From a virus: DNA of 64,000 bases. The stretch covers positions 37,220-101,219 of the IMG/VR virus record IMGVR_UViG_3300047557_002442. One strand, written 5' to 3'. The notes below the pieces were generated by a model that was given only the letters and a program-made list of their open reading frames with translations, had not been told where the DNA came from and did not search any database. Position 1 is the first letter of the stretch. Each line of letters opens with the position of its first letter. The translations under genes were made by a program, and so were the position numbers. This document shows positions 36,769 through 60,344 of the stretch, piece by piece.

Positions 36769-37304
36769 GATGTTGACCTCCTAATCAATTTAAAGTATAT
36801 TCATTATCATGAAAATGTAAAATTAAGTCAACACCAGACTAACAAATCCTAAGATAACAATCATGACTATCAATACCACGAATCCACCAACATCATTTTC
36901 ATCTTTCCGACTATCCTCAAAGTAGTTGCGAGGTAGAAAGTATCCATTCATATCAACACCACGAGCGTCGCGTGCAAACTTGTAATTGTGATCGCTATAT
37001 GGATTATACGTGCTTTCCCACGTTGTATGAGCTTTACTATCAGGTTTAAACTTATACATCTTCACTCCTATCAATGATTGCGTTTCGCCACCAGTGTTCA
37101 CGCAATGGCTTAAATGTATCTAAAAAGAGTTGAAACTTATCTTTATCAGTAAAGTCACAATGTCTTAATAGACCTTCATGTGTTATGGTGAAACAGTTCT
37201 CGTACTTTTCTTTCCACCAACCTGTCATACGATAAAATTCGCCATTGGTCATGCCTTGAACCATTCCACCACCACCTGTAAGTATTCTGAATGTAACTCT
37301 CATA

Positions 37305-45469: not shown

Positions 45470-45548
45470 TGGTGGGTCCCGTGGGATTCGAACCCACTAT
45501 CTATCGGTTATGAGCCGATTGCTTATACCAGATTTAAGCTTGAGACCC
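45470..45548 (-). tRNA. tRNA-Ile2/Met (CAU)
   Basis: Cloverleaf, anticodon loop ctCATaa, encoded CCA. Confidence 0.85.
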
Positions 45549-45550
45549 TT

Positions 45551-45624
45551 TGGAGCGGGATAAGGGAATCGAACCCTCACCAAAAGATTGGAAATCTTTT
45601 GTTCTGCCATTAAACTAATCCCGC
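45551..45624 (-). tRNA. tRNA-Gly (UCC)
   Basis: ttTCCaa loop, CCA. Confidence 0.9.
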
Positions 45625-45625
45625 A

Positions 45626-45815
45626 GTCCAACTGTTAGCAACTTATGTCCTCACCGTTGGCGTTTGGACGGCCTAATACGTTTAGGAAGACGTTTGGGAG
45701 TTATCCTCCCTAATGACCGAATCCTCATACGTCTATAAGGCAATAACTGTAAATTCAGTTTAGCATTTGCACCCTGACACTACATCGCAGGACAAAGTGG
45801 CTCGGTTCATTTATA
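45626..45815 (-). ncRNA. Candidate structured RNA
   Basis: ORF-free and GC-elevated; hairpins GGGAG-gataa-CTCCC and GACGT/ACGTC. Confidence 0.35.
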
Positions 45816-46382
45816 CTATGCTGCAAATCTTGAATATCTTGGTAGCTTAGCCTTCAAGTAATCCATTTGGTCAGCAACAACGTTTCTGTTTTGTAAAATA
45901 AAATGTTCCCAACGACATGGTCTATATGGAACATACAGTAAGTGCATTTTAGCTTCTTCTGGTGTTCTGTTAGACTTTGTTTCGTTACAGTCCTTACATG
46001 CAGTTACAGAGTTTTCCCAAGCATTAGTACCACCACGACTTTTTGGAAGTACATGGTCTCTTGTTAGCTTTTCAGGATGAAACTCTCCACCGCAGTAGGC
46101 ACAGATATGATGGTCTCTACGGAACAGTAAATGGTTGCCATGTGTATTGATAGTTGGTCTATCAAACCGACGTTTGCATTCACCTTCAATAGCGATAATA
46201 GATTTGGCAACAATCACACTACGGTCGCCAGTTTTTCTTTGAGTACCACCATGGAACGTAGCTATGTCATCACCTAGCTCCCATACTACTTTGTCTGATG
46301 CATAGTAGTGAATGGCTTCTTCCATAGAAAGCCATTTGAATGGATTGCCAGCAATGTCCAAACCTAATATTCTAACGTCCAC
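45816..46382 (-). CDS. HNH endonuclease
   Basis: CAYCG, TRDHVLPKSRGG, WENSVTACKDCN. Confidence 0.9.
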   Translation of the reverse strand: MDVRILGLDIAGNPFKWLSMEEAIHYYASDKVVWELGDDIATFHGGTQRKTGDRSVIVAKSIIAIEGECKRRFDRPTINTHGNHLLFRRDHHICAYCGGEFHPEKLTRDHVLPKSRGGTNAWENSVTACKDCNETKSNRTPEEAKMHLLYVPYRPCRWEHFILQNRNVVADQMDYLKAKLPRYSRFAA

Positions 46383-46390
46383 GATATCTC

Positions 46391-46807
46391 CTATTCCACT
46401 TCTATCCAGGTGTAATCACCCAGCCATTTTACTTGACAGATATAATCATAATGTTTAGGTGCACCACAACTCCAGTCTGTTGGACCATGTCGCGTTAGTA
46501 GTGTACCACCACGCTTCATATCTCTGGCTAGCCAGTATGTTTCTCCATTATGAATCTGGAAGTCATACTTAGCAGCATGTACCCAATCCGTTACTTCTAA
46601 CCTTCGTTTGATACTCTCGGCCTGTTTCTGTAGTACCTTAACAAGGTCCATGATACGGTCATACTCTTGTTGAGCGTGCATACGAGCAACATTCAACATC
46701 ACATCCTTTTGCTGAGTAACTGGAACCAACTCGAACTTTGGTGCTCCTATATCCATTGGATATGTGAGACTGTGATGCCGCATTGGATCTTGATCAGTTA
46801 TTTTCAT
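46391..46807 (-). CDS. DUF2452-like protein
   Basis: YP...GAPKF, GETY.L, P.DW, LGD.TW. Confidence 0.55.
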   Translation of the reverse strand: MKITDQDPMRHHSLTYPMDIGAPKFELVPVTQQKDVMLNVARMHAQQEYDRIMDLVKVLQKQAESIKRRLEVTDWVHAAKYDFQIHNGETYWLARDMKRGGTLLTRHGPTDWSCGAPKHYDYICQVKWLGDYTWIEVE

Positions 46808-46845
46808 ATCATAATATTCATTGACAACTTGGATGTTTTATTTAT

Positions 46846-46920
46846 TGGTAGGAGCACAGAGACTCGAACTCTGAAAGTCTGGTTAAAAGCCAGATATGAT
46901 AGCCATTTCATCATACTCCC
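46846..46920 (-). tRNA. tRNA-Lys (UUU)
   Basis: ctTTTaa loop, CCA. Confidence 0.9.
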
Positions 46921-46922
46921 AT

Positions 46923-46999
46923 TGGTGCGGATGGTCAGATTCGAACCGACACTTTACGGATTTTAAGTCCGTTGACTCTACCTATTGGCCTACATCCGC
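46923..46999 (-). tRNA. tRNA-Leu (UAA), short variable arm
   Basis: ctTAAaa loop, CCA. Confidence 0.88.
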
Positions 47000-47061
47000 A
47001 GCTGGAACTTCATAGAGATACAGGCTCTCAGTTCCGATTGCTTTCCTGTATTGCATTATAT

Positions 47062-47138
47062 TGGTGCCCAAGGAGGGATTCGAACCCACACTGTACAGTG
47101 TTTGAAACTGTCGCCTCTACCTATTGCGCTACTTGGGC
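47062..47138 (-). tRNA. tRNA-Leu (CAA), short variable arm
   Basis: ttCAAac loop, CCA. Confidence 0.85.
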
Positions 47139-47189
47139 ATTGTCTTACCTGTAAGTCATATTACGAATTATGACTTAGATATAAGTGAC

Positions 47190-47264
47190 TGGTGGTAATG
47201 AGTGGACTTGAACCACTAACATTCTCCGTATGAAGGAGGTGGACTACCATTGTCCTACATTACC
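47190..47264 (-). tRNA. tRNA-Met (CAU)
   Basis: ttCATac loop, CCA. Confidence 0.85.
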
Positions 47265-47271
47265 TAAATTC

Positions 47272-47346
47272 TGGGGTCACCGAGGAGGTTCGAACTCCCA
47301 CTGTAAGAGCCACAATCTTACGTGCTGCCATTACACTACGGTCACC
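47272..47346 (-). tRNA. tRNA-His (GUG)
   Basis: ttGTGgc loop, G-1/C73, CCA. Confidence 0.9.
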
Positions 47347-47449
47347 ATTGTTGCTGTTCTCCCCCACTCTCGGATTGCAGCATATATGAGCTTAACGTAC
47401 TCATATTCCCTAGAACGTCTACAGGCATAGGCGCCTACCCTGTAAATTC

Positions 47450-47523
47450 TGGCTCCGGTGGAGGGAATCGAACCCCCACTAACGGTTTTGGAGACCGCTG
47501 CGCTACCATTACGCCACACCGAA
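47450..47523 (-). tRNA. tRNA-Trp (CCA)
   Basis: ctCCAaa loop, CCA. Confidence 0.9.
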
Positions 47524-47531
47524 GTAAAACT

Positions 47532-47609
47532 TGGAGCATAGAGTGGGATTTGAACCCACGGGGTTACAGTTTTGCAGACTGTTGCTTTGGACCACTCAGC
47601 CATCTATGC
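47532..47609 (-). tRNA. tRNA-Cys (GCA)
   Basis: ctGCAaa loop, U73, CCA. Confidence 0.9.
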
Positions 47610-48014
47610 TTCGATTGGGAACAACTCCGTAAACTTAGCTGTCATAATTTCAACTAACTTAGGGTCTCTATAAGCATAGTCATCTTCGATCTCTAAGTTG
47701 ATTACTTGTTTGTAACTAAAGTCTGTAATCACATTTGCCAATTCATTCTGCATAGCATTGATTTCGAGTTGCTGGAATGAATCCATACAAAGTATAACAT
47801 CAGCCCAAACAACCAATGCATGTGTTACAGGAACAATGGCATATTCCAAACTGGTCCCTGCACATCTGGTATTAAAATTCCAAGGTGGGCTGCTAAGTAT
47901 ATGAGCAGCGGTAGGAGAGCGCAAACAACCAGCGCTACACACAGTAAGTACTCGGCGATGTCTTCCTTGATACGCATTTTGCACAACTCCTAATTGATTT
48001 CTTTTAATCATCAT
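47604..48014 (-). CDS. Low-molecular-weight PTP-like phosphatase
   Basis: VCSAGCLRSPTA (Cx5R), WADVILCM, IEDDY. Confidence 0.8.
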   Translation of the reverse strand: MMIKRNQLGVVQNAYQGRHRRVLTVCSAGCLRSPTAAHILSSPPWNFNTRCAGTSLEYAIVPVTHALVVWADVILCMDSFQQLEINAMQNELANVITDFSYKQVINLEIEDDYAYRDPKLVEIMTAKFTELFPIEA

Positions 48015-48060
48015 TTACTCCAAGAAATACATTATCATGTATCGCATTTATTAAGTCAAC

Positions 48061-48136
48061 TGGTAGGACCCCACAGAATCGAACTGTGTCCTCATGCTCT
48101 TCAGGCACGCGCGCAGACCACGTACGCCAGAGTCCT
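48061..48136 (-). tRNA. tRNA-Phe (GAA)
   Basis: ctGAAga loop, CCA. Confidence 0.88.
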
Positions 48137-48143
48137 ATAAATC

Positions 48144-48220
48144 TGGTCCTCGGAGGTGGAATCGAACCACCACTCTATCGATTATCAGTCGATTGTTTTG
48201 AACCATTAAACTACCCGAGG
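48144..48220 (-). tRNA. tRNA-Ile (GAU)
   Basis: ctGATaa loop, CCA. Confidence 0.9.
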
Positions 48221-48222
48221 TT

Positions 48223-48297
48223 TGGCGCGGCTGGTAGGATTCGAACCTACATAAGAGGGCTTAGAAGACCCTTGCACATCCCTTGTACCACAACCGC
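48223..48297 (-). tRNA. tRNA-Arg (UCU)
   Basis: ctTCTaa loop, CCA. Confidence 0.9.
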
Positions 48298-48302
48298 AAA
48301 AC

Positions 48303-48378
48303 TGGCACCCTTGGAAGGAATCGAACCTCCATCATGACGTTCGTAGCGTCGTATTCTAATCCGTTGAACTACAAGGGT
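48303..48378 (-). tRNA. tRNA-Arg (ACG)
   Basis: ctACGaa loop, CCA. Confidence 0.9.
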
Positions 48379-48379
48379 A

Positions 48380-48889
48380 TTACTCTTCCACAATCTCGTC
48401 GTCAGCCATCAAGATTGGACATAATTTTTCTACACTGTCAAACATATGTCTGAGTCTATTTTTATCATATCCATACGAGTCTAATTTGTTTAATACTTTT
48501 TCATTAAAGTCTGGAGCAGCTTCTCTATGATGACGGTGATGTCTATAGAATGAATGCATTCTAAACAATCCATATGCATGCTTTGTTGATAAAGCCATAA
48601 TTGCACATGCACTATCACAATGATCTAAACTATACCAATAAACGTTTCCATGTTTATTAACTGCATCCATTGCTTCAAACAAATCAGCACTTGTGCCACC
48701 AGCACTTGAAACATAGAAACTTATAGTCTTGTTAGGATTACTCTTAACTATTTGAATAATCTCATCATACTCTTCTTTGTCTAGCTTACCGACTATTCTA
48801 TATTCACTGTCAGCTACCTTCTGTACTACAGGAATAGTAGCAGTACAAGCAGTTAATAATAAAAGTATGAATATAAGTTTCACATGCAT
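48380..48889 (-). CDS. Lipoprotein with ClpP/crotonase-like motifs
   Basis: LLLTAC lipobox, SAGG, CDSACA. Confidence 0.5.
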   Translation of the reverse strand: MHVKLIFILLLLTACTATIPVVQKVADSEYRIVGKLDKEEYDEIIQIVKSNPNKTISFYVSSAGGTSADLFEAMDAVNKHGNVYWYSLDHCDSACAIMALSTKHAYGLFRMHSFYRHHRHHREAAPDFNEKVLNKLDSYGYDKNRLRHMFDSVEKLCPILMADDEIVEE

Positions 48890-48895
48890 CCTAAT

Positions 48896-48971
48896 TGGCG
48901 ACCCGTAAGGGAATCGAACCCTTATGTCCCACTAGACAGGCGGGCATAATAATCCACTATATGAACGGGCC
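48896..48971 (-). tRNA. tRNA-Asp (GUC)
   Basis: ctGTCta loop, CCA. Confidence 0.9.
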
Positions 48972-48976
48972 AAAAC

Positions 48977-49050
48977 TGGTTGCGGGCGTCCGAATTGCAC
49001 GGCGTCTCGAGCTTATGAGGCTCGCGAGCTACTGTTGCTCCACCCCCGCA
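48977..49050 (-). tRNA. tRNA-fMet-like (CAU)
   Basis: TGCGGGG 5' end, ctCATaa loop, AACCA end; atypical T-loop. Confidence 0.75.
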
Positions 49051-49056
49051 GTAATC

Positions 49057-49132
49057 TGGTGCCCCCTGTCGGATTTGAACTGACAACCTATCGCTTACAA
49101 GGCGATTGCACTACCAATTGTGCTAAAGAGGC
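49057..49132 (-). tRNA. tRNA-Thr (UGU)
   Basis: ctTGTaa loop, CCA. Confidence 0.9.
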
Positions 49133-49133
49133 A

Positions 49134-49209
49134 TGGTACTCAGTGTAGGAATCGAACCTACATAATCTATCTTGTAAGGATAGTCTCTAACCACTCGAGT
49201 CAACTGAGT
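49134..49209 (-). tRNA. tRNA-Val (UAC)
   Basis: ctTACaa loop, CCA. Confidence 0.9.
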
Positions 49210-49211
49210 AT

Positions 49212-49424
49212 AGGTGTTAAGCTACTCGCACTACCGAGCCCTTAACTGAGGTGTTTACCCTGTCTCAACTGTGGCCCTTATGGATGGTACAGTCTCAACC
49301 CACGAATCTTTCAAGGCTCCCTACAACGGGACTTCGAGGTGGCCGCTAAGCCGTATCGTGTGCACCCTGCTCTTATGGTTTGGCAATTACCCACTTTCTT
49401 CAAGTAAAAGTGTAAACTAGTGTT
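49212..49424 (-). ncRNA. Candidate structured RNA of about 210 nt between tRNAs
   Basis: ORF-free and GC-elevated; hairpins GTTAAG..CTTAAC, CACTTT..AAAGTG, ACTGT..ACAGT. Confidence 0.45.
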
Positions 49425-49425
49425 C

Positions 49426-49499
49426 TGGAGCGGATAACGAGGTTCGAACTCGTGATTCAACCTTGGCAAGGTCGTGTATTACCACTATACTATATCCGC
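49426..49499 (-). tRNA. tRNA-Gly (GCC)
   Basis: ttGCCaa loop, CCA. Confidence 0.9.
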
Positions 49500-49500
49500 A

Positions 49501-49560
49501 TGGTGGGGTGTCTTAACAGTGTACTTCCGACACCCCGAACACGTAATGTACACACGTGCC
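49501..49560 (-). ncRNA. Two-hairpin RNA ending in ACCA
   Basis: GGCACGU/ACGUGUU and GGGGUGUC/GACACCCC stems with complementary loops. Confidence 0.45.
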
Positions 49561-49567
49561 TGCAGCT

Positions 49568-49639
49568 TGGTGGACCGTGAGGGAGTCGAACCCTCCAGGA
49601 GTTGCGTGCAAGGCATCTCTGTACCCCGGTACACAGCCC
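49568..49639 (-). tRNA. tRNA-Ala (UGC)
   Basis: ctTGCac loop, G3-U70, CCA. Confidence 0.85.
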
Positions 49640-49713
49640 ATAATACATCTAGGCACTGATGAGTCAGTTGTTTAAAACTAGCGCTCAATGGAATCCCGCT
49701 TCGTTCCTAAAAC

Positions 49714-49789
49714 TGGTCTCGCATGAAGGACTCGAACCTTCGAACTCTCCGCCCCAAACGGAGTGGTATAGCCGCTAACCGAATGCGAG
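49714..49789 (-). tRNA. tRNA-Pro (UGG)
   Basis: ttTGGgg loop, CCA. Confidence 0.9.
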
Positions 49790-49796
49790 ATAAAAC

Positions 49797-49873
49797 TGGC
49801 TGCCTAGGGAGGGCTCGAACCTCCGACATCCTGATTAACAGTCAGGCGCAACTACCAACTGTGCTACTAGACA
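49797..49873 (-). tRNA. tRNA-Asn (GUU)
   Basis: ctGTTaa loop, CCA. Confidence 0.9.
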
Positions 49874-49989
49874 ATAATTCTTGGGATCATGTTGGCCAAG
49901 GCCTTTTTCGTGCTTGGCGCCGCGATCCCTCCGGCCTCCTCCCCACAACTTCAATTGTTGCCGCTCAAAGTTGCCCGAGGATATTTGTT

Positions 49990-50067
49990 TGGTGGGCTCT
50001 CTCGGACTCGAACCGAGACGCAACTCGTTCTAAGCGAGCTAGGTATGCCAATTCCCGTCAAAAGCCC
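49990..50067 (-). tRNA. tRNA-Leu (UAG), short variable arm
   Basis: ctTAGaa loop, CCA. Confidence 0.85.
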
Positions 50068-50069
50068 TT

Positions 50070-50161
50070 TGGCGGAGAATATTGGATTTGAACCAATGAT
50101 ACGATTTTACTCATATTCCTTCTTAGCAGGAAGGTGTCTTAAACCACTCGACCAATTCTCC
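50070..50161 (-). tRNA. tRNA-Ser (GCU)
   Basis: ctGCTaa loop, long variable arm, GCCA. Confidence 0.9.
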
Positions 50162-50518
50162 GTATTCTGTTTCAGGGTCAATAATAAGAACTGTTCTAGG
50201 TACTATATTTTTATTAATATACACAACCTTATTATCATCTGCCAAGTAGAATGCCCACCCATCAATTAACGTACGATCAACAGGGACAACCTTACCATTT
50301 ACAACAGACTTTGATGCTAATTCGTATCTATTTGACACCCTATTTTTTATTCGCTCTCTATATTTTACTTGCAATCTATATGTCTGTCCACATTCATCAA
50401 CTGCAATTAAATCAATAGGGGAATGATCATCAAATGCAGGAAACACATAGAATCCCTTTTCTTGAAGATCATCAATAACTTTAATTAACCCTTTAACACC
50501 TTTTTGATTTACATTCAT
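50123..50518 (-). CDS. Free-standing PD-(D/E)XK endonuclease (homing-endonuclease-like)
   Basis: N.KG, PIDLIA...RLQVKYR. Confidence 0.7.
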   Translation of the reverse strand: MNVNQKGVKGLIKVIDDLQEKGFYVFPAFDDHSPIDLIAVDECGQTYRLQVKYRERIKNRVSNRYELASKSVVNGKVVPVDRTLIDGWAFYLADDNKVVYINKNIVPRTVLIIDPETEYGELVEWFKTPSC

Positions 50519-50650
50519 AATTATATCCTAAATAATTATTTATGTAAGCCCAGAGGTTGAGTCAACCTCTGTTACAAATAAAATTGGGCGGTTTTCTACG
50601 CTCTCCTAACCTCGAATACATTAAGTCGTAGCTTTCTCCCAAAATAAAAC

Positions 50651-50741
50651 TGGCGGAAGGATGGCGGAATCGAACCCCTGGCTATCCCTAGCTCGCTCTG
50701 CTTTCAAAACAGACGCAACATCCCCGGTTGCATAACCTTCC
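50651..50741 (-). tRNA. tRNA-Ser (UGA)
   Basis: ttTGAaa loop, long variable arm, GCCA. Confidence 0.88.
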
Positions 50742-50748
50742 GTAAAAC

Positions 50749-50823
50749 TGGCAGAGGTACTAGGACTCGAACCTAGACGAACAGCTTCAAAGACTGTTGT
50801 GCTAACCATTACACTATACCCCA
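50749..50823 (-). tRNA. tRNA-Gln (UUG)
   Basis: ctTTGaa loop, CCA. Confidence 0.9.
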
Positions 50824-50830
50824 ACAAAAC

Positions 50831-50913
50831 TGGTGGGTGTTGAGGGAATCGAACCCCCTTGCCGAAGCAACTGTTTTACAGACAGCCGTCAATTCCAGTA
50901 TGACCTAACACCC
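50831..50913 (-). tRNA. tRNA-Tyr (GUA)
   Basis: ctGTAaa loop, variable arm, CCA. Confidence 0.9.
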
Positions 50914-50917
50914 AATA

Positions 50918-51066
50918 ACCATATAGAAACACACTCTGACTCATCCATTTGGCGTCGACTCCTTTTGAATGCGTTGGATTAATAACCCTCCAACCAGGAC
51001 CCTTTCGGTCTTCATTACTCATAGCTCGCGATCTAATTTCATGAATTGAATGTGCTTTTATATGGT
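50918..51066 (-). ncRNA. Candidate structured RNA closed by a stem of about 19 bp
   Basis: ACCATATAAAAGCACATTC pairs with GAGTGTGTTTCTATATGGT; internal GACC-GAAA hairpin. Confidence 0.45.
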
Positions 51067-51138
51067 ACACGGTACGGGAATCGAACCCGTCCTACTGACG
51101 TGAAAGGCCAGTGTTCTAAACCGATAAACTAACCGTGT
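51063..51138 (-). tRNA. tRNA-Glu (UUC)
   Basis: ctTTCac loop, CCA. Confidence 0.9.
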
Positions 51139-51431: not shown

Positions 51432-51460
51432 ATTGTATCTTTTATTTATAATAAAGTCAA
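51432..51460 (-). promoter_or_regulatory. Nested early (TTGACT-17-TACAAT) and late (TATAAATA, 51443-51450) promoters for the leader
   Basis: Direct match to both consensus sequences. Confidence 0.7.
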
Positions 51461-51509: not shown

Positions 51510-51517
51510 TATAAATA
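51510..51517 (+). promoter_or_regulatory. T4 late promoter heading the plus-strand operon
   Basis: Exact TATAAATA followed by AGGAGG and GTG at 51535. Confidence 0.65.
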
Positions 51518-51534: not shown

Positions 51535-51810
51535 GTGGATTTTTTTAAACTTGTAGCAGAAGTAGGTTTTCCAATTGCCGCAGCTGTTGCTGCTGGTTAC
51601 TTTGTCTTCTTAACTTTAAAGTTCATTCTTGCAGGAGTTACATCTTCTGTCAAAGGAATGAGTGGTATCATCACAGCTCTTGATAAAAGAGTAGCAACCA
51701 TGAACCATGATGTTGTACGCATTGATACAAAAGTTAGTCATGCTTTAGGTATCCCACCTGATTTAGATAGAATCGCACGTGCCGAGCAATCTGACGCTCG
51801 TCGTGACTAA
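51535..51810 (+). CDS. Small membrane protein (GFPI motif, YvrJ/holin-like)
   Basis: EVGFPIAAA TM plus coiled coil. Confidence 0.55.
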   Translation: MDFFKLVAEVGFPIAAAVAAGYFVFLTLKFILAGVTSSVKGMSGIITALDKRVATMNHDVVRIDTKVSHALGIPPDLDRIARAEQSDARRD

Positions 51811-52045
51811 ATCAACTACCTATCACTTTGATTTCATTATATTTTTGATGTAATGAATGACTCTTAAATTATTACGTTTCTGATTTTATTATATTTTTAT
51901 TAACTTAATATTAAGGACATAATATGTTCAAAGAACGTAATCTCATGTTCCAAAAGGAACGTGATCGTATGATATGGACTGATCTGGATTTGGCGATTGG
52001 TTGTGTCGTAGCTTATTTCATTGGTATGATTATAGGATTTCTATT

Positions 52046-52318
52046 ATGGATATAGCAGCATTAATTAGCAAGTATGGGTTTCCTATAGTTGCGGCAGCAG
52101 GATTAGGGTATTTTGTTTTCTATGTATGGAAGTGGGTAACAACTGACATTAAGCCAGTTGTTGGTGAATCGAATCAAGTTCTTATTAACTTGATCGATCG
52201 CGTAAGAATGTTAGATAACGACCTAATCAGATTAAATCAAAGAGTAAACGTTTATCTTTCATTGAAAGAATCAAATGATAAAAAATCTACCAATAATATT
52301 GATAGCAGTAGTAACTAG
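52046..52318 (+). CDS. Small membrane protein, paralogue of 51535
   Basis: KYGFPIVAAAG.GYF TM; LIDRVRMLDNDLIR matches LDKRVATMNHDVVR. Confidence 0.55.
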   Translation: MDIAALISKYGFPIVAAAGLGYFVFYVWKWVTTDIKPVVGESNQVLINLIDRVRMLDNDLIRLNQRVNVYLSLKESNDKKSTNNIDSSSN

Positions 52319-52754
52319 CGTATATGGTGGTGAACTTGTACATCAATTTAATAGCCCTTCCTTCAATGGACAAGGGTTCAGTAGTCACGTATTAACAATC
52401 AAGCAATTAGAAGATCAAGCAAAAGAAAAAAATGAAGCTGCTGAAGATGCAATAAGAGCAAGAGCAGAAGCAGCTGCAAAAGATACCCCACAAGCAAGAT
52501 TCATTGCAAACTTAGAATCACGTATATACAGTCAACTTGCAAAACAATTAACAGATAGTATGTTCGGTGAAGGTGCTACATGTGTAACACCAGGTGTGAT
52601 ATGTGGTACAATTGATAACCTAGGTGGTAATTCTATCACTTGGATGCTTGGTGAAGGTAGTAATTCTGGTAACATTGTTATTACAATCCAGGACTTAAAC
52701 AACAGTAGTAACAGAACAGTAATGGCCGTACCTGTTGGTACGTTCTATTTCTAG
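52275..52754 (+). CDS. csgF: CsgF-like curli assembly protein
   Basis: Signal peptide, then GELVHQFNSPSFNG resembling the CsgF N-terminus (F.NP.F.G); LESRIYSQL; directly upstream of csgG. Confidence 0.75.
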   Translation: MIKNLPIILIAVVTSVYGGELVHQFNSPSFNGQGFSSHVLTIKQLEDQAKEKNEAAEDAIRARAEAAAKDTPQARFIANLESRIYSQLAKQLTDSMFGEGATCVTPGVICGTIDNLGGNSITWMLGEGSNSGNIVITIQDLNNSSNRTVMAVPVGTFYF

Positions 52755-52763
52755 GAGCCGTCA

Positions 52764-53576
52764 ATGAAAAGCCTCTTAGCTTTGTTAATGGTTACTTTAT
52801 TGACTGGATGTGCTTCCTCTATGGTTGCTGGTGCAAAGAAATTTGAAGCACCAGAAGTCCAACAAGGGACATATCTACAACAGAACAAAATTGATGTACC
52901 AGCAGATGGACCAATTCCAGTTGCTGTATATTCATTCCAAGATAAGACTGGTCAACGTAAAAATGTTCCAAACATTGCCAGCTTTAGCTCAGCTGTAACA
53001 CAAGGTGCTGATGCTTACTTAATCAAGGCTCTACAAGATGTTGGTGAAGGTCGTTGGTTCACTGTGGTAGAGCGTGTAGGTTTAGATAATCTAATCAAAG
53101 AGCGTCAAATGATTAGACAAATGCGTGAACAATATCAAGGACGTGATGCAAAGCAATTACCTCCAATGATATTTGCTGGAATACTGATGGAAGGTGCAGT
53201 AACCGGCTACGATTCAAATGTTATGACTGGTGGTTATGGTATGAGAGTGCTCGGTATTGGAGCACAAACTCAATACCAATCAGACAGTGTAACTGTTACA
53301 TTAAGAACAGTCAGTGTCAATACTGGTGAAGTACTAACAACCGTAACTATAACTAAAACAATTCTTAGTTATATGGACAAATTTGGTATGTTACGATTTG
53401 TCGAAGCGGGTGAGCAAGCAATCGAGTCAGAGAGTGGTGTAAGTGTAAACGAAAGTATTAATCGCGCTACAGACTTAGCAATCCAAGCTGCAGTGATTGC
53501 TACAATCAAAGAAGGTGTTCGTAAAGGACACTGGAGCTACAAAGGGCAACCTATTGTAACTCCATTAATAAACTAA
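52764..53576 (+). CDS. csgG: CsgG curli secretion channel lipoprotein
   Basis: LLTGC lipobox; VAVYSFQDKTGQRK, SSAVTQG, WF.VVER.GL.NL.KERQ.IR. Confidence 0.92.
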   Translation: MKSLLALLMVTLLTGCASSMVAGAKKFEAPEVQQGTYLQQNKIDVPADGPIPVAVYSFQDKTGQRKNVPNIASFSSAVTQGADAYLIKALQDVGEGRWFTVVERVGLDNLIKERQMIRQMREQYQGRDAKQLPPMIFAGILMEGAVTGYDSNVMTGGYGMRVLGIGAQTQYQSDSVTVTLRTVSVNTGEVLTTVTITKTILSYMDKFGMLRFVEAGEQAIESESGVSVNESINRATDLAIQAAVIATIKEGVRKGHWSYKGQPIVTPLIN

Positions 53577-53587
53577 AGGAGTAACAA

Positions 53588-54370
53588 ATGAAACTGTTTA
53601 GCAAACTATTTGGTATGGTGGCTTTAAGTTTCGCATTGTCATCTTTTGCTGTTGAAGCAACTGGACCAAATCGTGTATACATTGAACAAATTGGTAGTTC
53701 TAACTTGATTACAATTGAACAAGTTGGTGGTACTAATGATGTTGGTGGTACTGCTGGTTCAGCAACTGTTGACCAAACTGGTGTTACAACATTGACAGTT
53801 ACTGCACCTAGTGCAACAAACTATGGTACAGTAAATGGTAGTTCAAACCAATTGTCAATAAACCAACGTGGTAATGTTAACCAAGCACAATATAACGTTA
53901 AAGGTAATAACAATACCTATACAAGTAACGTGACTGGTAATGGTAATCAAACAAAACTAAATGTTGGTGATACAAACACAAGTGGTCTTCGTAATACTGT
54001 TAATGAGACTATAAATGGTAACAACAATATGCAAATTACTACTGTAGTTGGTAGTGATAATGCATTGTCTACAACTGTAACTGGTAGTAACAACCAACTT
54101 ACAAATACAGTAACAACAAGTAATGCAGATGTAACACATACTATTACAGGTAGTCGTAACATAGTAAACACACAACAAATTGATGCTGCTGGTGCAAATG
54201 GCCACAGCTTAACAAACTCCATCGTTGGTGATTACAATAGCGTTACAACACAGCAACAAGGTACAAACGATACTACTGTTAATATTGCAACAACTGGTGA
54301 TCATAATACTGTGACAGTACGTACAAGTAGCACAACAATACTCAACCCAGTTTCAGCAATCGCAAGATAA
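53588..54370 (+). CDS. Secreted curlin-repeat protein (CsgA/B-like)
   Basis: Signal peptide; repeats of about 11 residues of the N-x-x-x-I-x-Q-x-G-x-x-N type; N/T/G/Q-rich. Confidence 0.75.
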   Translation: MKLFSKLFGMVALSFALSSFAVEATGPNRVYIEQIGSSNLITIEQVGGTNDVGGTAGSATVDQTGVTTLTVTAPSATNYGTVNGSSNQLSINQRGNVNQAQYNVKGNNNTYTSNVTGNGNQTKLNVGDTNTSGLRNTVNETINGNNNMQITTVVGSDNALSTTVTGSNNQLTNTVTTSNADVTHTITGSRNIVNTQQIDAAGANGHSLTNSIVGDYNSVTTQQQGTNDTTVNIATTGDHNTVTVRTSSTTILNPVSAIAR

Positions 54371-54371
54371 A

Positions 54372-55466
54372 ATGAAATACTGGTTTGTTATTTGTTTGCT
54401 ACTAATTAGTACAATTAGTTGGGCAGCAATAGGATCCGTCGTCGATACAAAAGGAACCTCTTGCTCCATTGAACGTGGAAAGCAAAAACTACCTGGTGAT
54501 AAAGGTGTTGGTATTGAAAGTATGGATACCTATATCACTGGTAGTTGTGTTGCTAACATTACATTCAAAGATGATACTAAAGTCAAAGTCACAGAAAATT
54601 CCAGACTTCTCATAGATGATTTTATTTTTGATCCAAAGCAATCAGATGCTGGAAAGTTAGCATTAAAGGTTGGAATGGGTACTGTTCGTTATGCATCAGG
54701 CCAAATCGCTAAAAACAATCCACAAAAAGTAGATATAAAAACGCCAACAGCTACTATTGCTGTTCGTGGTACAGATTTCAATATGACTGTTGACGAAACT
54801 GGACAGTCATTAATTATTCTTGTTCCTTCATGTAAAGAAGGTGAGAAGATAAAACAATACGAGCTTGAAGAGAACCAATGTAAGGTTGGTAAGATAGATG
54901 TAATTACAGTTGGTGGTACTGTTAGTCTTGATAAGGCATTTGAGGCAACATATGTCACAAGTGCAAACTTACCCCCAACTCCACCTGTTATCATCAATAC
55001 GGTTGAGGGTAATATCAGTAACAGTTTGATTATTGCAAAACCACAAGAAGTAATGAGAGCAAGTAGAGATAATAATAAGGCCAAACGTGATCTTGAGTTT
55101 GAGGAAGAGCAAGCAGAATCAAATAGACAGATTGTTCAAAGAATGAAACAGATGGAAGAACCACCTCCAGCTAAGGTTATGCCATATACATTTGATAATG
55201 GTAGCAAGGGATGTAATCCTTCAATAAACGTTTGTGTGGTTTTTGAAAAGCAGGATGTTCCTGAAGTACAACTAAGGGGTAGAGGGGTTGCCTTTCGTAG
55301 TAATCCTGATCACTATGATGAAGTAAAGACTCAAGGTTACGACTCTAATACGACCGTTAACATCACACATGATGATGCACCAGCAACTGCTTTGATAGGG
55401 TCTGGTGATCCAGGTGGTAACATTGTGAACATAAGACAAAATACTGGAGTTATAAAGACACAATGA
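54372..55466 (+). CDS. FecR-domain periplasmic protein
   Basis: Signal peptide; D.YITG, F.DDT.V.V.ENS, TPTATIAVRGTDF. Confidence 0.85.
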   Translation: MKYWFVICLLLISTISWAAIGSVVDTKGTSCSIERGKQKLPGDKGVGIESMDTYITGSCVANITFKDDTKVKVTENSRLLIDDFIFDPKQSDAGKLALKVGMGTVRYASGQIAKNNPQKVDIKTPTATIAVRGTDFNMTVDETGQSLIILVPSCKEGEKIKQYELEENQCKVGKIDVITVGGTVSLDKAFEATYVTSANLPPTPPVIINTVEGNISNSLIIAKPQEVMRASRDNNKAKRDLEFEEEQAESNRQIVQRMKQMEEPPPAKVMPYTFDNGSKGCNPSINVCVVFEKQDVPEVQLRGRGVAFRSNPDHYDEVKTQGYDSNTTVNITHDDAPATALIGSGDPGGNIVNIRQNTGVIKTQ

Positions 55467-56581
55467 AAAAACTCCTTCTAATTTTACTACTCCTATGTAA
55501 TGTAGCTTTGGCTAACACAACAGGGCTATCATATACAGTATGTGCTGCAGGAGGTCCTACACCTACAAGAACCTGCTCAGGTAGAACTATACTTGCTACT
55601 GGTGTAAGTCAGAATATTAATTTTGACTGGGGTGGCGGTGGTGTTATGGGTACAGGTAGAGGTGATGGTGTTCTTGTAAACTGGCAAGGGTTTATATTAT
55701 GGCCTGGTACAAGTGGACAACAAACTGTATTTTTCTATTCCGCTTCAGATGATGGTTTCAGTGTAGCTATAAACGGTACATATGCAATCAACAGTTGGCG
55801 TGAACAAGGTGCAAGTTGGTACAATGGTAGTGGTAGTATGACTCTTACTGCTGGACAAGTATATGCTGTCGATATATGGTACTATGAAAATGGTGGTGGT
55901 GCAGCTGCTTTTTGGTATTGGAATACTGGCAGTGGTATTGTACTTGTACCATCAACAAATCTAGCAACAACAAATAACTATTGGGTACCAAGTCTTTGTT
56001 GTGGAGGTAGTAGTGCCCCTATTACAATTGATCTTACGCATTCAAATAGACTGAATACTTTCACAAACCGTACAACAAATGATAGTCGTGTATATGTTGA
56101 ACAGATTGGTAACTTTAATGAAGTCACTATACAACAAACTGGAACAAGAAACAACTACCTAGAATATACTGGTAATGGAATGTCCAATGACGTGAACGTA
56201 ACTCAATCTGGTAATGCTTCAACCACTGCAAATTATATCGATCTCAATGTAAGTGGAAGTAATAATACAGTCAACATGACTCAAACAAGTACTGGTGGAA
56301 CCAAGAGTATGTTTGTGGATGTTCAAAATAACAATAACAATGTTAATATACAGCAGAAGGATAATGGAAGTCATTACATTGATCTAACTATAACTGGTGG
56401 TAGTAAGAACATTGATATTCTTCAGCAAGGAAGTGCTGCTCATCGAGCAGATATAACCTTAACTGGAGCTAGCCCAAGAGATTTGTCCCTTACCCAAACT
56501 GGTACTACTCAACAATCATATAGTATCAACAGTAATTGTACTTCATCGTGTCAACCAATCACGGTGATACAGGGACAATAA
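55463..56581 (+). CDS. Secreted PA14-domain plus curlin-repeat protein
   Basis: INFDWGGG, SDDG, YYENGGGA (PA14), then EQIGNFNEVTIQQTG-type repeats. Confidence 0.75.
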   Translation: MKKLLLILLLLCNVALANTTGLSYTVCAAGGPTPTRTCSGRTILATGVSQNINFDWGGGGVMGTGRGDGVLVNWQGFILWPGTSGQQTVFFYSASDDGFSVAINGTYAINSWREQGASWYNGSGSMTLTAGQVYAVDIWYYENGGGAAAFWYWNTGSGIVLVPSTNLATTNNYWVPSLCCGGSSAPITIDLTHSNRLNTFTNRTTNDSRVYVEQIGNFNEVTIQQTGTRNNYLEYTGNGMSNDVNVTQSGNASTTANYIDLNVSGSNNTVNMTQTSTGGTKSMFVDVQNNNNNVNIQQKDNGSHYIDLTITGGSKNIDILQQGSAAHRADITLTGASPRDLSLTQTGTTQQSYSINSNCTSSCQPITVIQGQ

Positions 56582-56589
56582 ATACATAT

Positions 56590-57120
56590 ATGAAAAGAAG
56601 ACCATTGTGTTTTATAACACGCGATAAAGAATATGAGCTTATCCAACAACTATTAACGATAGTAGATAGCTCTACATTTGATCCTGATAATACAGCTATT
56701 ATTATGGCATCACCAGATTACTCTGCAACCGTTGCAATGCATTTATCACATGCATGGTCACAGAGAGGGGAACCACTTCCCATAATACCAGTTGATGTTG
56801 CATATCCTGACGAAACCCATTTGGATTATTACAATGCCAAGTTCCAGCATGAGTTTGAATGGTGGACAATGGCTAACAATCATCCAAAGAAACTTGTGTT
56901 GGTTGAAGCAGGAATCATCAGAGGTGGTAACTGGAAGTGGTTATTACAAACACTAATAAGTGAATATGGATATGCACGTGAGGATATAACTCTTATAGCC
57001 TTGTGTGAGAATATTCATTCAGAAGTCAAATCTGATTATGTTGGGCAATACTTTGACAATGAAAAAGAAGAGCTAATGTTTTACTACGAAAGGTATAATA
57101 AGCATTGGCCAATTTTTTAA
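56590..57120 (+). CDS. Phosphoribosyltransferase-fold-like protein
   Basis: LVLVEAGIIRGGN resembles a degenerate PRPP-binding loop. Confidence 0.4.
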   Translation: MKRRPLCFITRDKEYELIQQLLTIVDSSTFDPDNTAIIMASPDYSATVAMHLSHAWSQRGEPLPIIPVDVAYPDETHLDYYNAKFQHEFEWWTMANNHPKKLVLVEAGIIRGGNWKWLLQTLISEYGYAREDITLIALCENIHSEVKSDYVGQYFDNEKEELMFYYERYNKHWPIF

Positions 57121-57129
57121 GGAGTACCA

Positions 57130-59154
57130 ATGAAAAGATTGCTTTCGCCATGGCTTGCACTTTTAACTCTTTCACTTCTTGTTGTTCTAAGAATTTCAGA
57201 TCCGAGTTTCATTGAGAGTATTAGATTAAGATATTTCGACACTCTAATCACAAGCCAGCCTCAAACAATATCCCAACAAATACATGTAGTTAACATCGAT
57301 GATGCAGCCATAAATAAGTATGGTCAATATCCATTCCCGAGAGGTCAATATGCAGAAATTATACAACATCTTTACAGCAATGGTGCTGGGTTGGTTGTTG
57401 CTGGGCTGTATCTTCCTGACAGTGATCGTTTTGGACAGGACAGTCGACTGGCTGACATCCTGGATAAGCACCCTGTAGTCTTTCCACATACTGGAGTTGA
57501 TTATGAGGTTAATAAAGAAATTTATAGACCAGGTGTGTCCGAAATTGGTAGTCCTGCTTCTTCTTTTGCCGTTAGTTATCCTGGTATACTACCCAACGTT
57601 CCTGCTGTTAATGAACATGCTGCTGGTATTGGAGTAGTTAATGTTCTGCCTGAGATTGATGGTGTGGTTCGTCGTGTACCTATGGTCGTTGCCAGTGCTG
57701 GCAGACTCTACCCATCCATTACTCTTGAGACCCTTAGAGTCGCAGCAGGGGATCCAAGTTTCCAAGTCAAATCCTCAGACTATGGAATCGAAGCAGTTAG
57801 AATCCCTCACTTCAAAACAATCCAAACAGATGCTATCGGAAGAGTCTGGATTGACTGGTCTACAAAACCAACAGAACATTCACTTGCGAATCTACCGAAA
57901 TCTTTCGACGGATCAATTGTTATATTGGGAGTCACTGCTAGGGGACTCAACAACCCAGTTGCGACCGCCAGAGGAGAGATCTATCCTCATTATCTACAAT
58001 CTGCCATATTAGATACTCTTGTATCTGGAAAGAACATAAGCAGACCTGATTGGATGGATGGGGCTGAAATACTTGGTACAATTTTATTAGCTATTATAGC
58101 TATTCTTTTAACGAGGTGGACATATGGGTTTGTGGCTTTTGGTATTATTATCGGTGCTGTATATTATACTAGCAGTAGTGCATTTGGGACGTACTCCTAC
58201 TTGGTTGACTGTAGCTTCCCAATTGTTAGTCTATGCTTTGTTTATATACATTCTTATACAGTCAAGTTCCTGTCTGAGCTAAAACAGAAACTCCAAATAA
58301 AGAAACAATTCGGTACATACTTGTCTCCTGCAATGGTTGAAAAGTTGCAGAAGAATCCAGAGCTTTTAGCTTTGGGTGGTGAGTCAAGAGAGTTGTCTAT
58401 TATGTTTACGGATGTTCGTGGTTTCACTACTATCTCTGAACATTATGGTAAAGATGTACAAGGTCTAACCAAGATTATGAACCGTTACATGACTGCTATG
58501 ACTCGTAAGATTATAGACAATAACGGTACACTTGACAAATACATTGGTGATGCACAGATGGCATTCTGGAATGCTCCATTAGATGAACCTAACCATGCTA
58601 AGAAAGCTGTCAAGACTGCATTAGAGATGCTTGAAGATTTGGAAGCATTCAATACTGAAATTAAACGAGAAGGTATACCAGCTTTTGGTATGGGTCTTGG
58701 TATCAATACTGACACAGTTGTTGTTGGTAACATGGGTTCCGATCAACGTTTTGATTATACTTGTCTTGGTGATGGAGTCAATCTAGCTTCAAGACTTGAA
58801 GGTCAAAGCAAACCTTATGGTGTTAAGATTGTAATTGGTTCTAAGACGGCTGAACAAGTTAAAGATGAATACCCAGTTGTTGAATTGGATTGTATTGCTG
58901 TTAAAGGTAAAACAGAAGGTGTTAACATTTATAGTATATGTGCTTATCAAGAAGACCACTACAAACTTCATAAGAAGTACTTAAAAGCATACTATGATGG
59001 TAATTGGGAAGATGGCGGAGCTATTTTCCTTGCGACACAACTTTCTGCAGATGGTCCACCAGATATGAGACAATACTATCTTAATATGATAGAAAGAATG
59101 TCTGAAGGTAAGCCTGATAACTGGGATGGTACATACAGAGCTACGTCAAAGTAG
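57130..59154 (+). CDS. CHASE2-domain class III adenylate cyclase
   Basis: VNIDD....YGQ.P.PR and DGVVRR (CHASE2), 3 TM, FTDVRGFT, DKYIGDA, YT.LGD.VNLASRLE. Confidence 0.93.
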   Translation: MKRLLSPWLALLTLSLLVVLRISDPSFIESIRLRYFDTLITSQPQTISQQIHVVNIDDAAINKYGQYPFPRGQYAEIIQHLYSNGAGLVVAGLYLPDSDRFGQDSRLADILDKHPVVFPHTGVDYEVNKEIYRPGVSEIGSPASSFAVSYPGILPNVPAVNEHAAGIGVVNVLPEIDGVVRRVPMVVASAGRLYPSITLETLRVAAGDPSFQVKSSDYGIEAVRIPHFKTIQTDAIGRVWIDWSTKPTEHSLANLPKSFDGSIVILGVTARGLNNPVATARGEIYPHYLQSAILDTLVSGKNISRPDWMDGAEILGTILLAIIAILLTRWTYGFVAFGIIIGAVYYTSSSAFGTYSYLVDCSFPIVSLCFVYIHSYTVKFLSELKQKLQIKKQFGTYLSPAMVEKLQKNPELLALGGESRELSIMFTDVRGFTTISEHYGKDVQGLTKIMNRYMTAMTRKIIDNNGTLDKYIGDAQMAFWNAPLDEPNHAKKAVKTALEMLEDLEAFNTEIKREGIPAFGMGLGINTDTVVVGNMGSDQRFDYTCLGDGVNLASRLEGQSKPYGVKIVIGSKTAEQVKDEYPVVELDCIAVKGKTEGVNIYSICAYQEDHYKLHKKYLKAYYDGNWEDGGAIFLATQLSADGPPDMRQYYLNMIERMSEGKPDNWDGTYRATSK

Positions 59155-59299: not shown

Positions 59300-59656
59300 A
59301 TGAAAAAGGTTCTAGTTTTACTCTTATTATCGCTAAATGCTATGGCAGTTGATTATAGCGATCACAAAGAACTCTATATGGCAAATGAAGCAGGTGGTGA
59401 AATTGTACTTACATTAGAACCCTGTGCATTTGCCGAAGCGAAGAAGCTTGGTTTTGAAAATAGATCATATGCTACTATTGCTGATGGTAGCATTAAGGAA
59501 GAGGGCTGCTGGCTTGCTCCAGATATGAAGGATGCTCCGCAAGTTCAAGGAATAGCTATTATTCCAATAGTAAACTTGTGGTACGATAATATAATCCTAC
59601 CGTTCCCTCAAAATATGTTTGAGCCACGATTACGAGCTCGAAAGGATACAATATGA
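59300..59656 (+). CDS. Secreted protein
   Basis: Signal peptide; IVLT..PC...EGCW. Confidence 0.55.
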   Translation: MKKVLVLLLLSLNAMAVDYSDHKELYMANEAGGEIVLTLEPCAFAEAKKLGFENRSYATIADGSIKEEGCWLAPDMKDAPQVQGIAIIPIVNLWYDNIILPFPQNMFEPRLRARKDTI

Positions 59657-59952
59657 GGGCAATAGCTTTTACTTTATTATTATCATTCTCAACTACTATA
59701 CTTGCTGATACATATCTCGTGTATGTTATCAATCAATATACAAGAGTTGTTTTAAATAAGCGTGAGTGTTTAGTTCCAGGATTGAATGGGAATGCTGCAG
59801 TTGTACAAAATGCTAAAGGACAATATATACAAGGTTGTTGGCATGTTGATCGTAACAACAGCAACCATGTTCGCATTGATTGGAATAATCCAGCAGCACC
59901 TGGCGACTTTAGCGTTATCGAAGCAAATAAATTTAATTCTGTTACAGAATGA
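59653..59952 (+). CDS. Secreted protein, likely paralogue of 59300
   Basis: Signal peptide; VVLN..EC...QGCW. Confidence 0.55.
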   Translation: MRAIAFTLLLSFSTTILADTYLVYVINQYTRVVLNKRECLVPGLNGNAAVVQNAKGQYIQGCWHVDRNNSNHVRIDWNNPAAPGDFSVIEANKFNSVTE

Positions 59953-60344
59953 TCTCCAATTAGAGACTAAATAAAAAGGTTTAGTCTTTTTTTGGAGGAA
60001 GTATGACAGAGTCGCATAAAAGAACCATAGCACGAGCTATCTGCTGGCGTATCGTAGCAACACTAATTACTGCTGCTTATACTGGTTTAGGTGGAGCTAT
60101 TATTATTAATGTTTGGATGACGTTAGCACACTATATACACGAGCGTGCTTGGTTGCGTTGGTCTTGGGGTAAAGCCTAATCTGTAGCGTGCTTTTCAATC
60201 CACATATTGATAAAAGCGTTTGCTTCAAATTCATCTTTGAAGAAGTTTGCAATTGATTCACGTGAGACGATGTTATACATCACTGCCATAATACCAGCTT
60301 CACTACTACTTAATTTTATAACCCAGTTGTGTATTCTTACTGGC

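Follow-up and report, generated by a model that had tools for sequence, protein, structure and literature searches.

A freshwater member of the viral curli secretion module carrying a FecR-fold protein and a predicted CHASE2 adenylate cyclase

A 64,000-nucleotide stretch of viral DNA (IMG/VR record IMGVR_UViG_3300047557_002442, positions 37,220 to 101,219; hereafter the window) carries a block of curli-type export genes together with the genes of a FecR-fold protein and a CHASE2 adenylate cyclase. The block is a freshwater member of the viral type VIII secretion system (T8SS, curli) module, which has already been published, FecR and cyclase included (Wittmers et al. 2022, PMC9599517). We give a probability of about 0.5 to the reading that this member couples a secretion pore, a surface fibre, and the FecR-fold protein to the production of cyclic AMP (cAMP). 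The window is part of a 101-kb virus record with an estimated completeness of 62%. It encodes T4-like replication and structural genes (ribonucleotide reductase, UvsX, a gp41-type helicase, and virion proteins), and the best relatives of its UvsX are cyanomyophages, at ~59% identity.

Seven genes at 52275-59154 are co-directional on the plus strand, with spacing that ranges from a 4-nt overlap to 11 nt. They encode, in this order, CsgF, CsgG, curlin, the FecR-fold protein, a PA14-curlin fusion, a protein with a phosphoribosyltransferase (PRTase) fold, and the CHASE2 cyclase. The initial annotation, made from the letters alone, had described a tightly packed operon running from csgF to the cyclase gene, and all of its genes are present. 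Its span of 52275-59154 holds for these seven genes and falls short of the full extent of the unit, which is larger (51510 to ~59990). The identities and families of the genes are established by sequence and fold. The CsgF homologue (52275..52754, +) has a signal peptide and matches Pfam CsgF with an expectation value (E) of 1.5e-9 and a score of 38.5 bits against a cutoff of 25.8; phmmer against PDB chains returned no match for it. Its mature N-terminus, as read from the translation, carries QF..P.F.G, which we take to resemble the CsgG-binding peptide of E. coli CsgF. CsgG (52764..53576, +) is an outer-membrane channel lipoprotein with the lipobox LTGC (Pfam E 1.1e-49). It aligns with E. coli CsgG structures over its whole length (residues 2-260, E 4e-49) and retains the constriction Phe.

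The third gene (53588..54370, +) encodes a curlin with a signal peptide, a CsgA/B-like fibre subunit assigned from the Curlin_rpt family and its repeat periodicity. As a single sequence it matches Pfam weakly and below threshold (E 0.0029), and Curlin_rpt is matched by all 27 of the 27 members of its family. The family profile matches solved curli subunits (8c50, E 4e-16; the E. coli CsgA fibril 8enq, E 3.6e-5), and the autocorrelation of the sequence peaks at 11 and 22 residues. The second curlin (55463..56581, +) carries a signal peptide and a PA14 domain fused to curlin repeats. The PA14 domain matches Pfam with E 1.3e-6 (28.8 bits against a cutoff of 24) and the RsgI3 PA14 structure 6qe7 with E 2e-18; the repeats have a period of 23 and match CsgA weakly (E 0.0012). 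Both curlin calls of the initial annotation are thus borne out. So is its remark that no csgE or csgC is recognisable: neither was found in the 101-kb record, in a search whose E. coli control was positive.

The FecR-fold protein (54372..55466, +; Pfam FecR E 5.3e-10) is predicted to be secreted. It begins with a signal-peptide-like segment followed immediately by the FecR fold (~20-218), a helix (225-260), and a variable, beta-rich C-terminus. An AlphaFold2 model built with 36 relatives has a predicted local distance difference test score (pLDDT) of 76, which exceeds 90 at residues 20-205. The FecR family profile had no sequence match in the PDB. The model resembles the periplasmic domain of PupR (6ovk, Z 15.0; 4m0n, Z 13.8), and its N-terminus resembles the anchoring domain of MpIBP (5ix9, Z 6.7, 26% identity). 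FecR/PupR-type anti-sigma factors thus share the periplasmic fold, and the PupR domain binds an outer-membrane transducer. However, these factors also have a cytoplasmic anti-sigma domain and a membrane anchor, whereas the phage protein has neither, and neither an extracytoplasmic function sigma factor nor a TonB-dependent transducer was found within the block. With the anti-sigma domain, the transmembrane anchor, and the partners missing and a signal peptide present, we rejected its identity as a Fec-type anti-sigma factor.

The last of the seven genes (57130..59154, +) encodes a predicted class IIIb CHASE2 receptor adenylate cyclase. Pfam CHASE2 covers residues 16-322 (E 5.4e-35), and Guanylate_cyc is matched with E 1.6e-19. 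Hydrophobic segments were read from the sequence at residues 7-23 and ~314-375, and CHASE2 lies between the first transmembrane helix and the transmembrane cluster. The nearest solved structures of the catalytic domain are CyaB 3r5g and CyaC 1wc0. As the initial annotation had stated, the cyclase has both metal-binding Asp residues (D428 and D474), the adenine-specifying Lys and Thr (K470 and T544), and the transition-state Asn and Arg (N551 and R555), and all six are kept without change in 36 of 36 phage relatives. Two cultured-phage cyclases depart from the present one: that of Melnitz (L001:7669-9720) has Asp in place of the class IIIb Thr, and that of HTVC008M (L002:11203-13038) lacks a conserved C-terminal extension of ~70 residues ending in ...ATSK.

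We then compared the block across phages. The cyclase is encoded on at least 593 IMG/VR contigs; the best 80 loci, whose cyclases are 58-77% identical to the present one, were kept. All 61 of these with enough flank carry the same set: two short membrane proteins that precede csgF (up91 and up105, described below), CsgF, CsgG, curlin, FecR, and the cyclase. The survey of synteny in phages that the initial annotation had suggested therefore came out in its favour. Of 57 co-directional loci, 23 have FecR adjoining or overlapping the cyclase. Some phage loci carry the cyclase gene in the orientation opposite to that of the curli genes. The gene order in HTVC008M and Melnitz is identical to that of the present block.

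A curli cluster was described in pelagimyophages by Zaragoza-Solas et al. (2020, PMC7029224), and Buchholz et al. (2022, PMC9004378) modelled the CsgGF of Melnitz and proposed a role in lysis timing. Wittmers et al. (2022) reported the series CsgF-CsgG-CsgA/B-FecR-CsgA/B-adenylate cyclase as a module that is conserved, expressed, and derived from Alphaproteobacteria. The statement in the initial annotation that csgF and csgG alone had been noted in marine phages is therefore superseded, the whole block with FecR and cyclase having been published in 2022. The viral T8SS region of pelagiphages (HTVC008M, Melnitz, and HTVC023P-type podophages) shares the order csgF-csgG-curlin-FecR-(second curlin)-cyclase with the present block and, like it, has no CsgE, CsgC, or CsgD. 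In Wittmers et al. (2022) the region begins with one or two short 'HK' genes; here two short membrane proteins, which may correspond to those genes, precede csgF, and these gave no match to an HK family. Compared with the cultured curli phages, the present CsgG is 46% identical and the cyclase ~39%. What the present copy has in addition is a PA14 head on its second curlin, the PRTase-fold cargo, and two small secreted proteins.

The present copy also differs in habitat, being from freshwater and wastewater, whereas the published module came from marine SAR11 and OM43 phages. The operon was found in public runs of freshwater, wastewater, lagoon, and aquaculture metagenomes from 12 studies; none of the listed runs containing it is RNA. 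Contigs of four studies cover 29-30 of 30 bins of the operon at 90-100% identity. Since freshwater pelagimyophages had been reported without the curli operon (Zaragoza-Solas et al. 2020, PMC7029224), this freshwater/wastewater lineage widens the known range of the viral curli module, which is not confined to the ocean. The module is abundant in freshwater and wastewater phages, beyond the marine SAR11 and OM43 phages, and few conserved auxiliary modules of aquatic T4-like phages are larger.

The comparison also bears on how the block is expressed. The T4-type late-promoter motif TATAAATA lies at 51510..51517 (+), 17 nt 5' of the first gene, up91 (51535..51810, +). Only four copies of TATAAATA occur in the window. 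Among distinct related loci, 22 of 49 have the motif in the 80 nt that precede the up91 homologue, as compared with 0.47% of background windows of that length; in the same comparison it was not found upstream of csgF, csgG, the curlin gene, or FecR. A scan for sigma-70 promoters was uninformative (31 sites versus 35 expected). At the other end, a terminator-like hairpin followed by a T run lies at 59962..59993 (+), with a folding energy of -18.6 kcal/mol (z -5.8); an equally strong fold arose in 0 of 200 shuffles. Because the motif is conserved before the first gene only and the hairpin closes the unit, the comparison supports reading the block as one putative late transcription unit of ~8.5 kb that starts with the motif (51510) and ends with the hairpin (near 59990).

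The product of up91 has 91 residues, with one transmembrane helix, a helical tail, and the invariant motif MNHDV(I/V)RID. The second gene, up105 (52046..52318, +), encodes a 90-residue paralogue of up91 with a GFPI...GYF transmembrane helix and LDNDLIRLNQ, and matches phrog_18771 (E 6.7e-33). The two genes are always paired, both are present wherever a related locus has enough flank, and they stay with the module in rearranged loci. Among cultured phages their homologues occur only in Melnitz and HTVC008M, both of which bear curli genes. A holin PHROG gave a faint N-terminal likeness among the two small membrane proteins (E 0.0022 over 18 residues).

In bacteria the two halves of the block are found apart. 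The 80 closest bacterial cyclases, mostly alphaproteobacterial, are 30-38% identical over the full length. Neither csgG nor csgF occurs within 10 kb of any of these 80, so the bacterial counterpart of the synteny survey did not bear out the linkage. A FecR-like open reading frame (ORF) lies within 10 kb at 28 of the 80 loci and within 1.5 kb at 18. A LapG-like BTLCP protease is present at 16 of the 80 and a type I secretion system (T1SS) pair of ABC and HlyD proteins at 22. In the Bradyrhizobium and Methylobacterium types, the gene of a giant protein of 1200-2100 residues lies 4-98 bp upstream of the cyclase gene; these proteins have an N-terminal FecR domain followed by cadherin, VCBS, or LamG domains or RTX repeats. 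Some of the bacterial FecR neighbours match the retention module below threshold (E 7e-7 to 4e-5). Conversely, a CsgG 42-47% identical to that of the phage was found in 7 of 401 alphaproteobacterial genomes. All seven loci have csgF or a curlin-repeat ORF nearby, and within 10 kb none has FecR, the cyclase, or the small membrane proteins.

The csgF-csgG-curlin part is of alphaproteobacterial type. CsgG, CsgF, and the curlin-repeat subunits are homologous to those of bacterial curli (E. coli csgBAC/csgDEFG and the alphaproteobacterial loci), and the order csgF then csgG is common to the alphaproteobacterial loci and the phage block; the phage block differs from bacterial curli in lacking CsgE, CsgC, and CsgD. 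Judging from gene neighbourhoods, the bacterial role of the pair of FecR and CHASE2 cyclase lies with type I secretion and Lap-like adhesin loci. As the closest bacterial cyclases never occur with csgG and often occur with FecR in such loci, the phage block is a chimera. Lap-type RTX adhesin systems resemble it in that the bacterial relatives of its cyclase adjoin LapG-like proteases, T1SS genes, and FecR-bearing giant adhesins; they use a T1SS, whereas the phage has the curli pore instead and no LapG or LapD.

Pairs of this kind have precedents. A LysM-FecR protein is paired with a CHASE2 histidine kinase in Burkholderia and Pseudomonas (PMC5192318), and smc02177 lies beside the CHASE2 cyclase CyaD1 in S. 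meliloti (PMC5498481). In these pairs, as in the phage, the gene of an exported FecR-domain protein adjoins that of a CHASE2 receptor, and the output of the S. meliloti pair is also cAMP; none of them is linked to curli. Our literature search returned no paper that connects CHASE2 to LapG, to retention modules, or to RTX adhesins. FecR and the cyclase were previously read as iron- or CsgD-related regulators, and the bacterial comparison suggests an adhesin-secretion sensor pair instead.

Some bacterial loci are of interest in their own right. In a Bradyrhizobium-type locus (L084:3225-12232), a BTLCP protease gene is divergent from a FecR-adhesin gene, which is followed directly by the CHASE2 cyclase gene. 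The arrangement resembles a Lap-like system with a cAMP enzyme at the place expected for LapD, and six further loci are similar (L088, L090, L093, L095, L113, and L114). Another locus (L112:6101-20994) is from a marine alphaproteobacterial single-cell genome of ~1.4 Mb, and L118 is similar to it. Here the cyclase gene lies between those of an HlyD protein with an N-terminal cyclic nucleotide monophosphate (cNMP)-binding domain and a small cNMP-binding protein, and two T1SS sets and a FecR-RTX protein adjoin it. We regard it as a candidate cAMP-regulated type I secretion circuit.

Taken together, the genes outline how the module may operate in the infected cell. The lipoprotein CsgG and CsgF would form an outer-membrane channel. 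The curlin and the PA14-curlin fusion would be exported through this channel and polymerise at the surface, giving a fibre whose head binds glycans. Remaining in the periplasm, the FecR-fold protein would inform the CHASE2 domain of the condition of the fibre or pore, and the cyclase would then produce cAMP for a receptor of the host. Such a relay from periplasm to cAMP is plausible because FecR-domain proteins frequently accompany the related cyclases at the adhesin-secretion loci of bacteria. Fibre formation, the contact between FecR and CHASE2, the signal, and the role of cAMP are what we infer from this arrangement. Aggregation, superinfection control, and lysis timing are proposed as benefits to the phage. 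The initial annotation had read the operon as a trans-envelope circuit that senses contact and may tune lysis. That reading is supported in part: its gene content and co-conservation hold, and the PRTase-like gene drops out as a core part. If confirmed, the mechanism would bear on the changes that phages make to the host surface late in infection and on the cues to which CHASE2 domains respond.

A more specific version, which we hold tentatively and think somewhat doubtful, is that the surface fibre has the FecR-fold protein as its periplasmic reporter or retention end, which CHASE2 reads, so that a fibre-state sensor of bacterial RTX adhesins would have been re-wired to a curli pore. If true, the infected cell could answer load or contact on its lectin-tipped amyloid fibre with cAMP late in infection, and CHASE2 would gain a first class of input.

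Several observations weigh against the coupled mechanism or this version of it. Melnitz-infected cells showed no clumping (Buchholz et al. 2022, PMC9004378), and the Melnitz cyclase has Ser at the position of the transition-state Asn. A search of the 101-kb record, whose completeness is 62%, gave no cNMP-binding domain. The phage FecR did not match the LapA retention-module model NCBIfam NF033682 at E 0.01. Its C-terminus is not recognisably curlin: Curlin_rpt matched 0 of 36 family members, and a likeness suggested by hhalign against the curlin family (P 0.0014, probability 17%) is at most speculative.

We therefore weighed three other explanations. The two halves could have independent functions and merely share an insertion site, with the curli genes making fibres or a pore and the FecR-CHASE2 cyclase sensing an unrelated periplasmic cue (envelope stress, superinfection, or a nutrient) and reprogramming the host via cAMP. 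The separation of the halves in bacteria, with csgG at 0 of 80 cyclase loci and FecR or cyclase at 0 of 7 csgG loci, favours this, as do the cargo genes that can come between FecR and the cyclase and the inverted cyclase of some phage loci. Yet both halves stay together in all 61 informative loci despite rearrangement, they share one predicted late unit with overlapping genes, and the bacterial FecR-cyclase pair is itself tied to loci for secretion of surface fibres. On balance we consider independent functions unlikely, though they are the most serious of the three alternatives.

The lysis-timing proposal of Buchholz et al. (2022) would make CsgG-CsgF a repurposed gated channel, pinholin-like and perhaps acting with the small membrane proteins, and the curlin-like proteins would not be fibre subunits. 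Late expression, as the promoter motif implies, would suit such a pore, and so would the two module-specific bitopic membrane proteins with their faint holin likeness, the missing CsgE gate, and the absence of clumping with Melnitz. We nevertheless judge it distinctly unlikely: the curlin family is clearly homologous to solved curli subunits and is kept in nearly all loci, CsgG belongs to the outer membrane, which is not the site of holin action, and a PA14-curlin fusion is sensible only for a surface-exposed fibre. Least probable, in our estimate, is a cyclase for host takeover or anti-defence whose activity is independent of any periplasmic signal, CHASE2 and FecR being evolutionary baggage. 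The intact catalytic site and the failure to find a cAMP receptor of the phage agree with it, but the CHASE2 and FecR domains are strongly conserved, with many invariant columns, and FecR adjoins the cyclase in the minimal form of the module. The coupling of pore, fibre, FecR, and cAMP remains the reading that we prefer.

The PRTase-fold protein (56590..57120, +) has no signal peptide and was assigned by a match to phrog_29004 and a VIA fold search. Its gene most likely starts at the ATG at 56590 and not at the TTG at 56536. The AlphaFold2 model is of modest quality (pLDDT 64.6); Foldseek gave no match below E 0.001, and there is no Pfam match. In the VIA-wide search the best match was XGPRT 7kl6 (Z 9.3, root mean square deviation 3.0, 117 aligned residues), and most of the top 13 are type I phosphoribosyltransferases. 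Its conserved loop, VEAGIIRGGN, has only one acidic residue, as opposed to the acidic pair of the phosphoribosyl pyrophosphate loop. Of the 80 related loci only 6 have the gene, and homologues occur also in the curli-less cyanophages S-SSM7 and S-RSM4; hence it is cargo and not core. The PRTase-like call of the initial annotation thus stands at the level of the fold, and the gene's membership of the core operon does not.

Other loci, too, have a cargo slot between FecR and the cyclase, occupied by a second curlin (with PA14 in only five related loci), small lipoproteins, or other ORFs. It appears as a cargo hot spot in six loci (L005, L007, L009, L013, L018, and L035). By N-terminal motif only, cargo ORFs include phosphoesterase-like (...CISDTHLG), HAD-like (...FIDLDGTI), and glycosyltransferase-like proteins.

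Downstream of the cyclase, two genes with overlapping stop and start (59300..59952, +) encode small proteins of 118 and 99 residues, predicted to be secreted from signal peptides read in the translations. They probably belong to the unit. Their homologues at L074:2694-3403 and L075:11358-12076 lie between the two small membrane-protein genes, so they may be accessories of the module. Neither these two proteins nor up91 and up105 matched a Pfam or NCBIfam family, and Atlas gave only a weak YvrJ lead (0.87) for the unassigned small proteins. A 43-codon ORF for a small hydrophobic peptide, read by eye between up91 and up105 (51924-52055, +), has a stop that overlaps the up105 start by 10 nt. Directly past the hairpin, a hydrophobic ORF of 58 residues (60003-60179, +) lies ahead of minus-strand replication genes. 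On the other side of the block, a tRNA array on the minus strand (45470-51138) has 26 tRNA genes for all 20 amino acids according to ARAGORN (25 according to Rfam). The array is transcribed away from the curli block, and a copy of TATAAATA at 51443 on the minus strand faces it.

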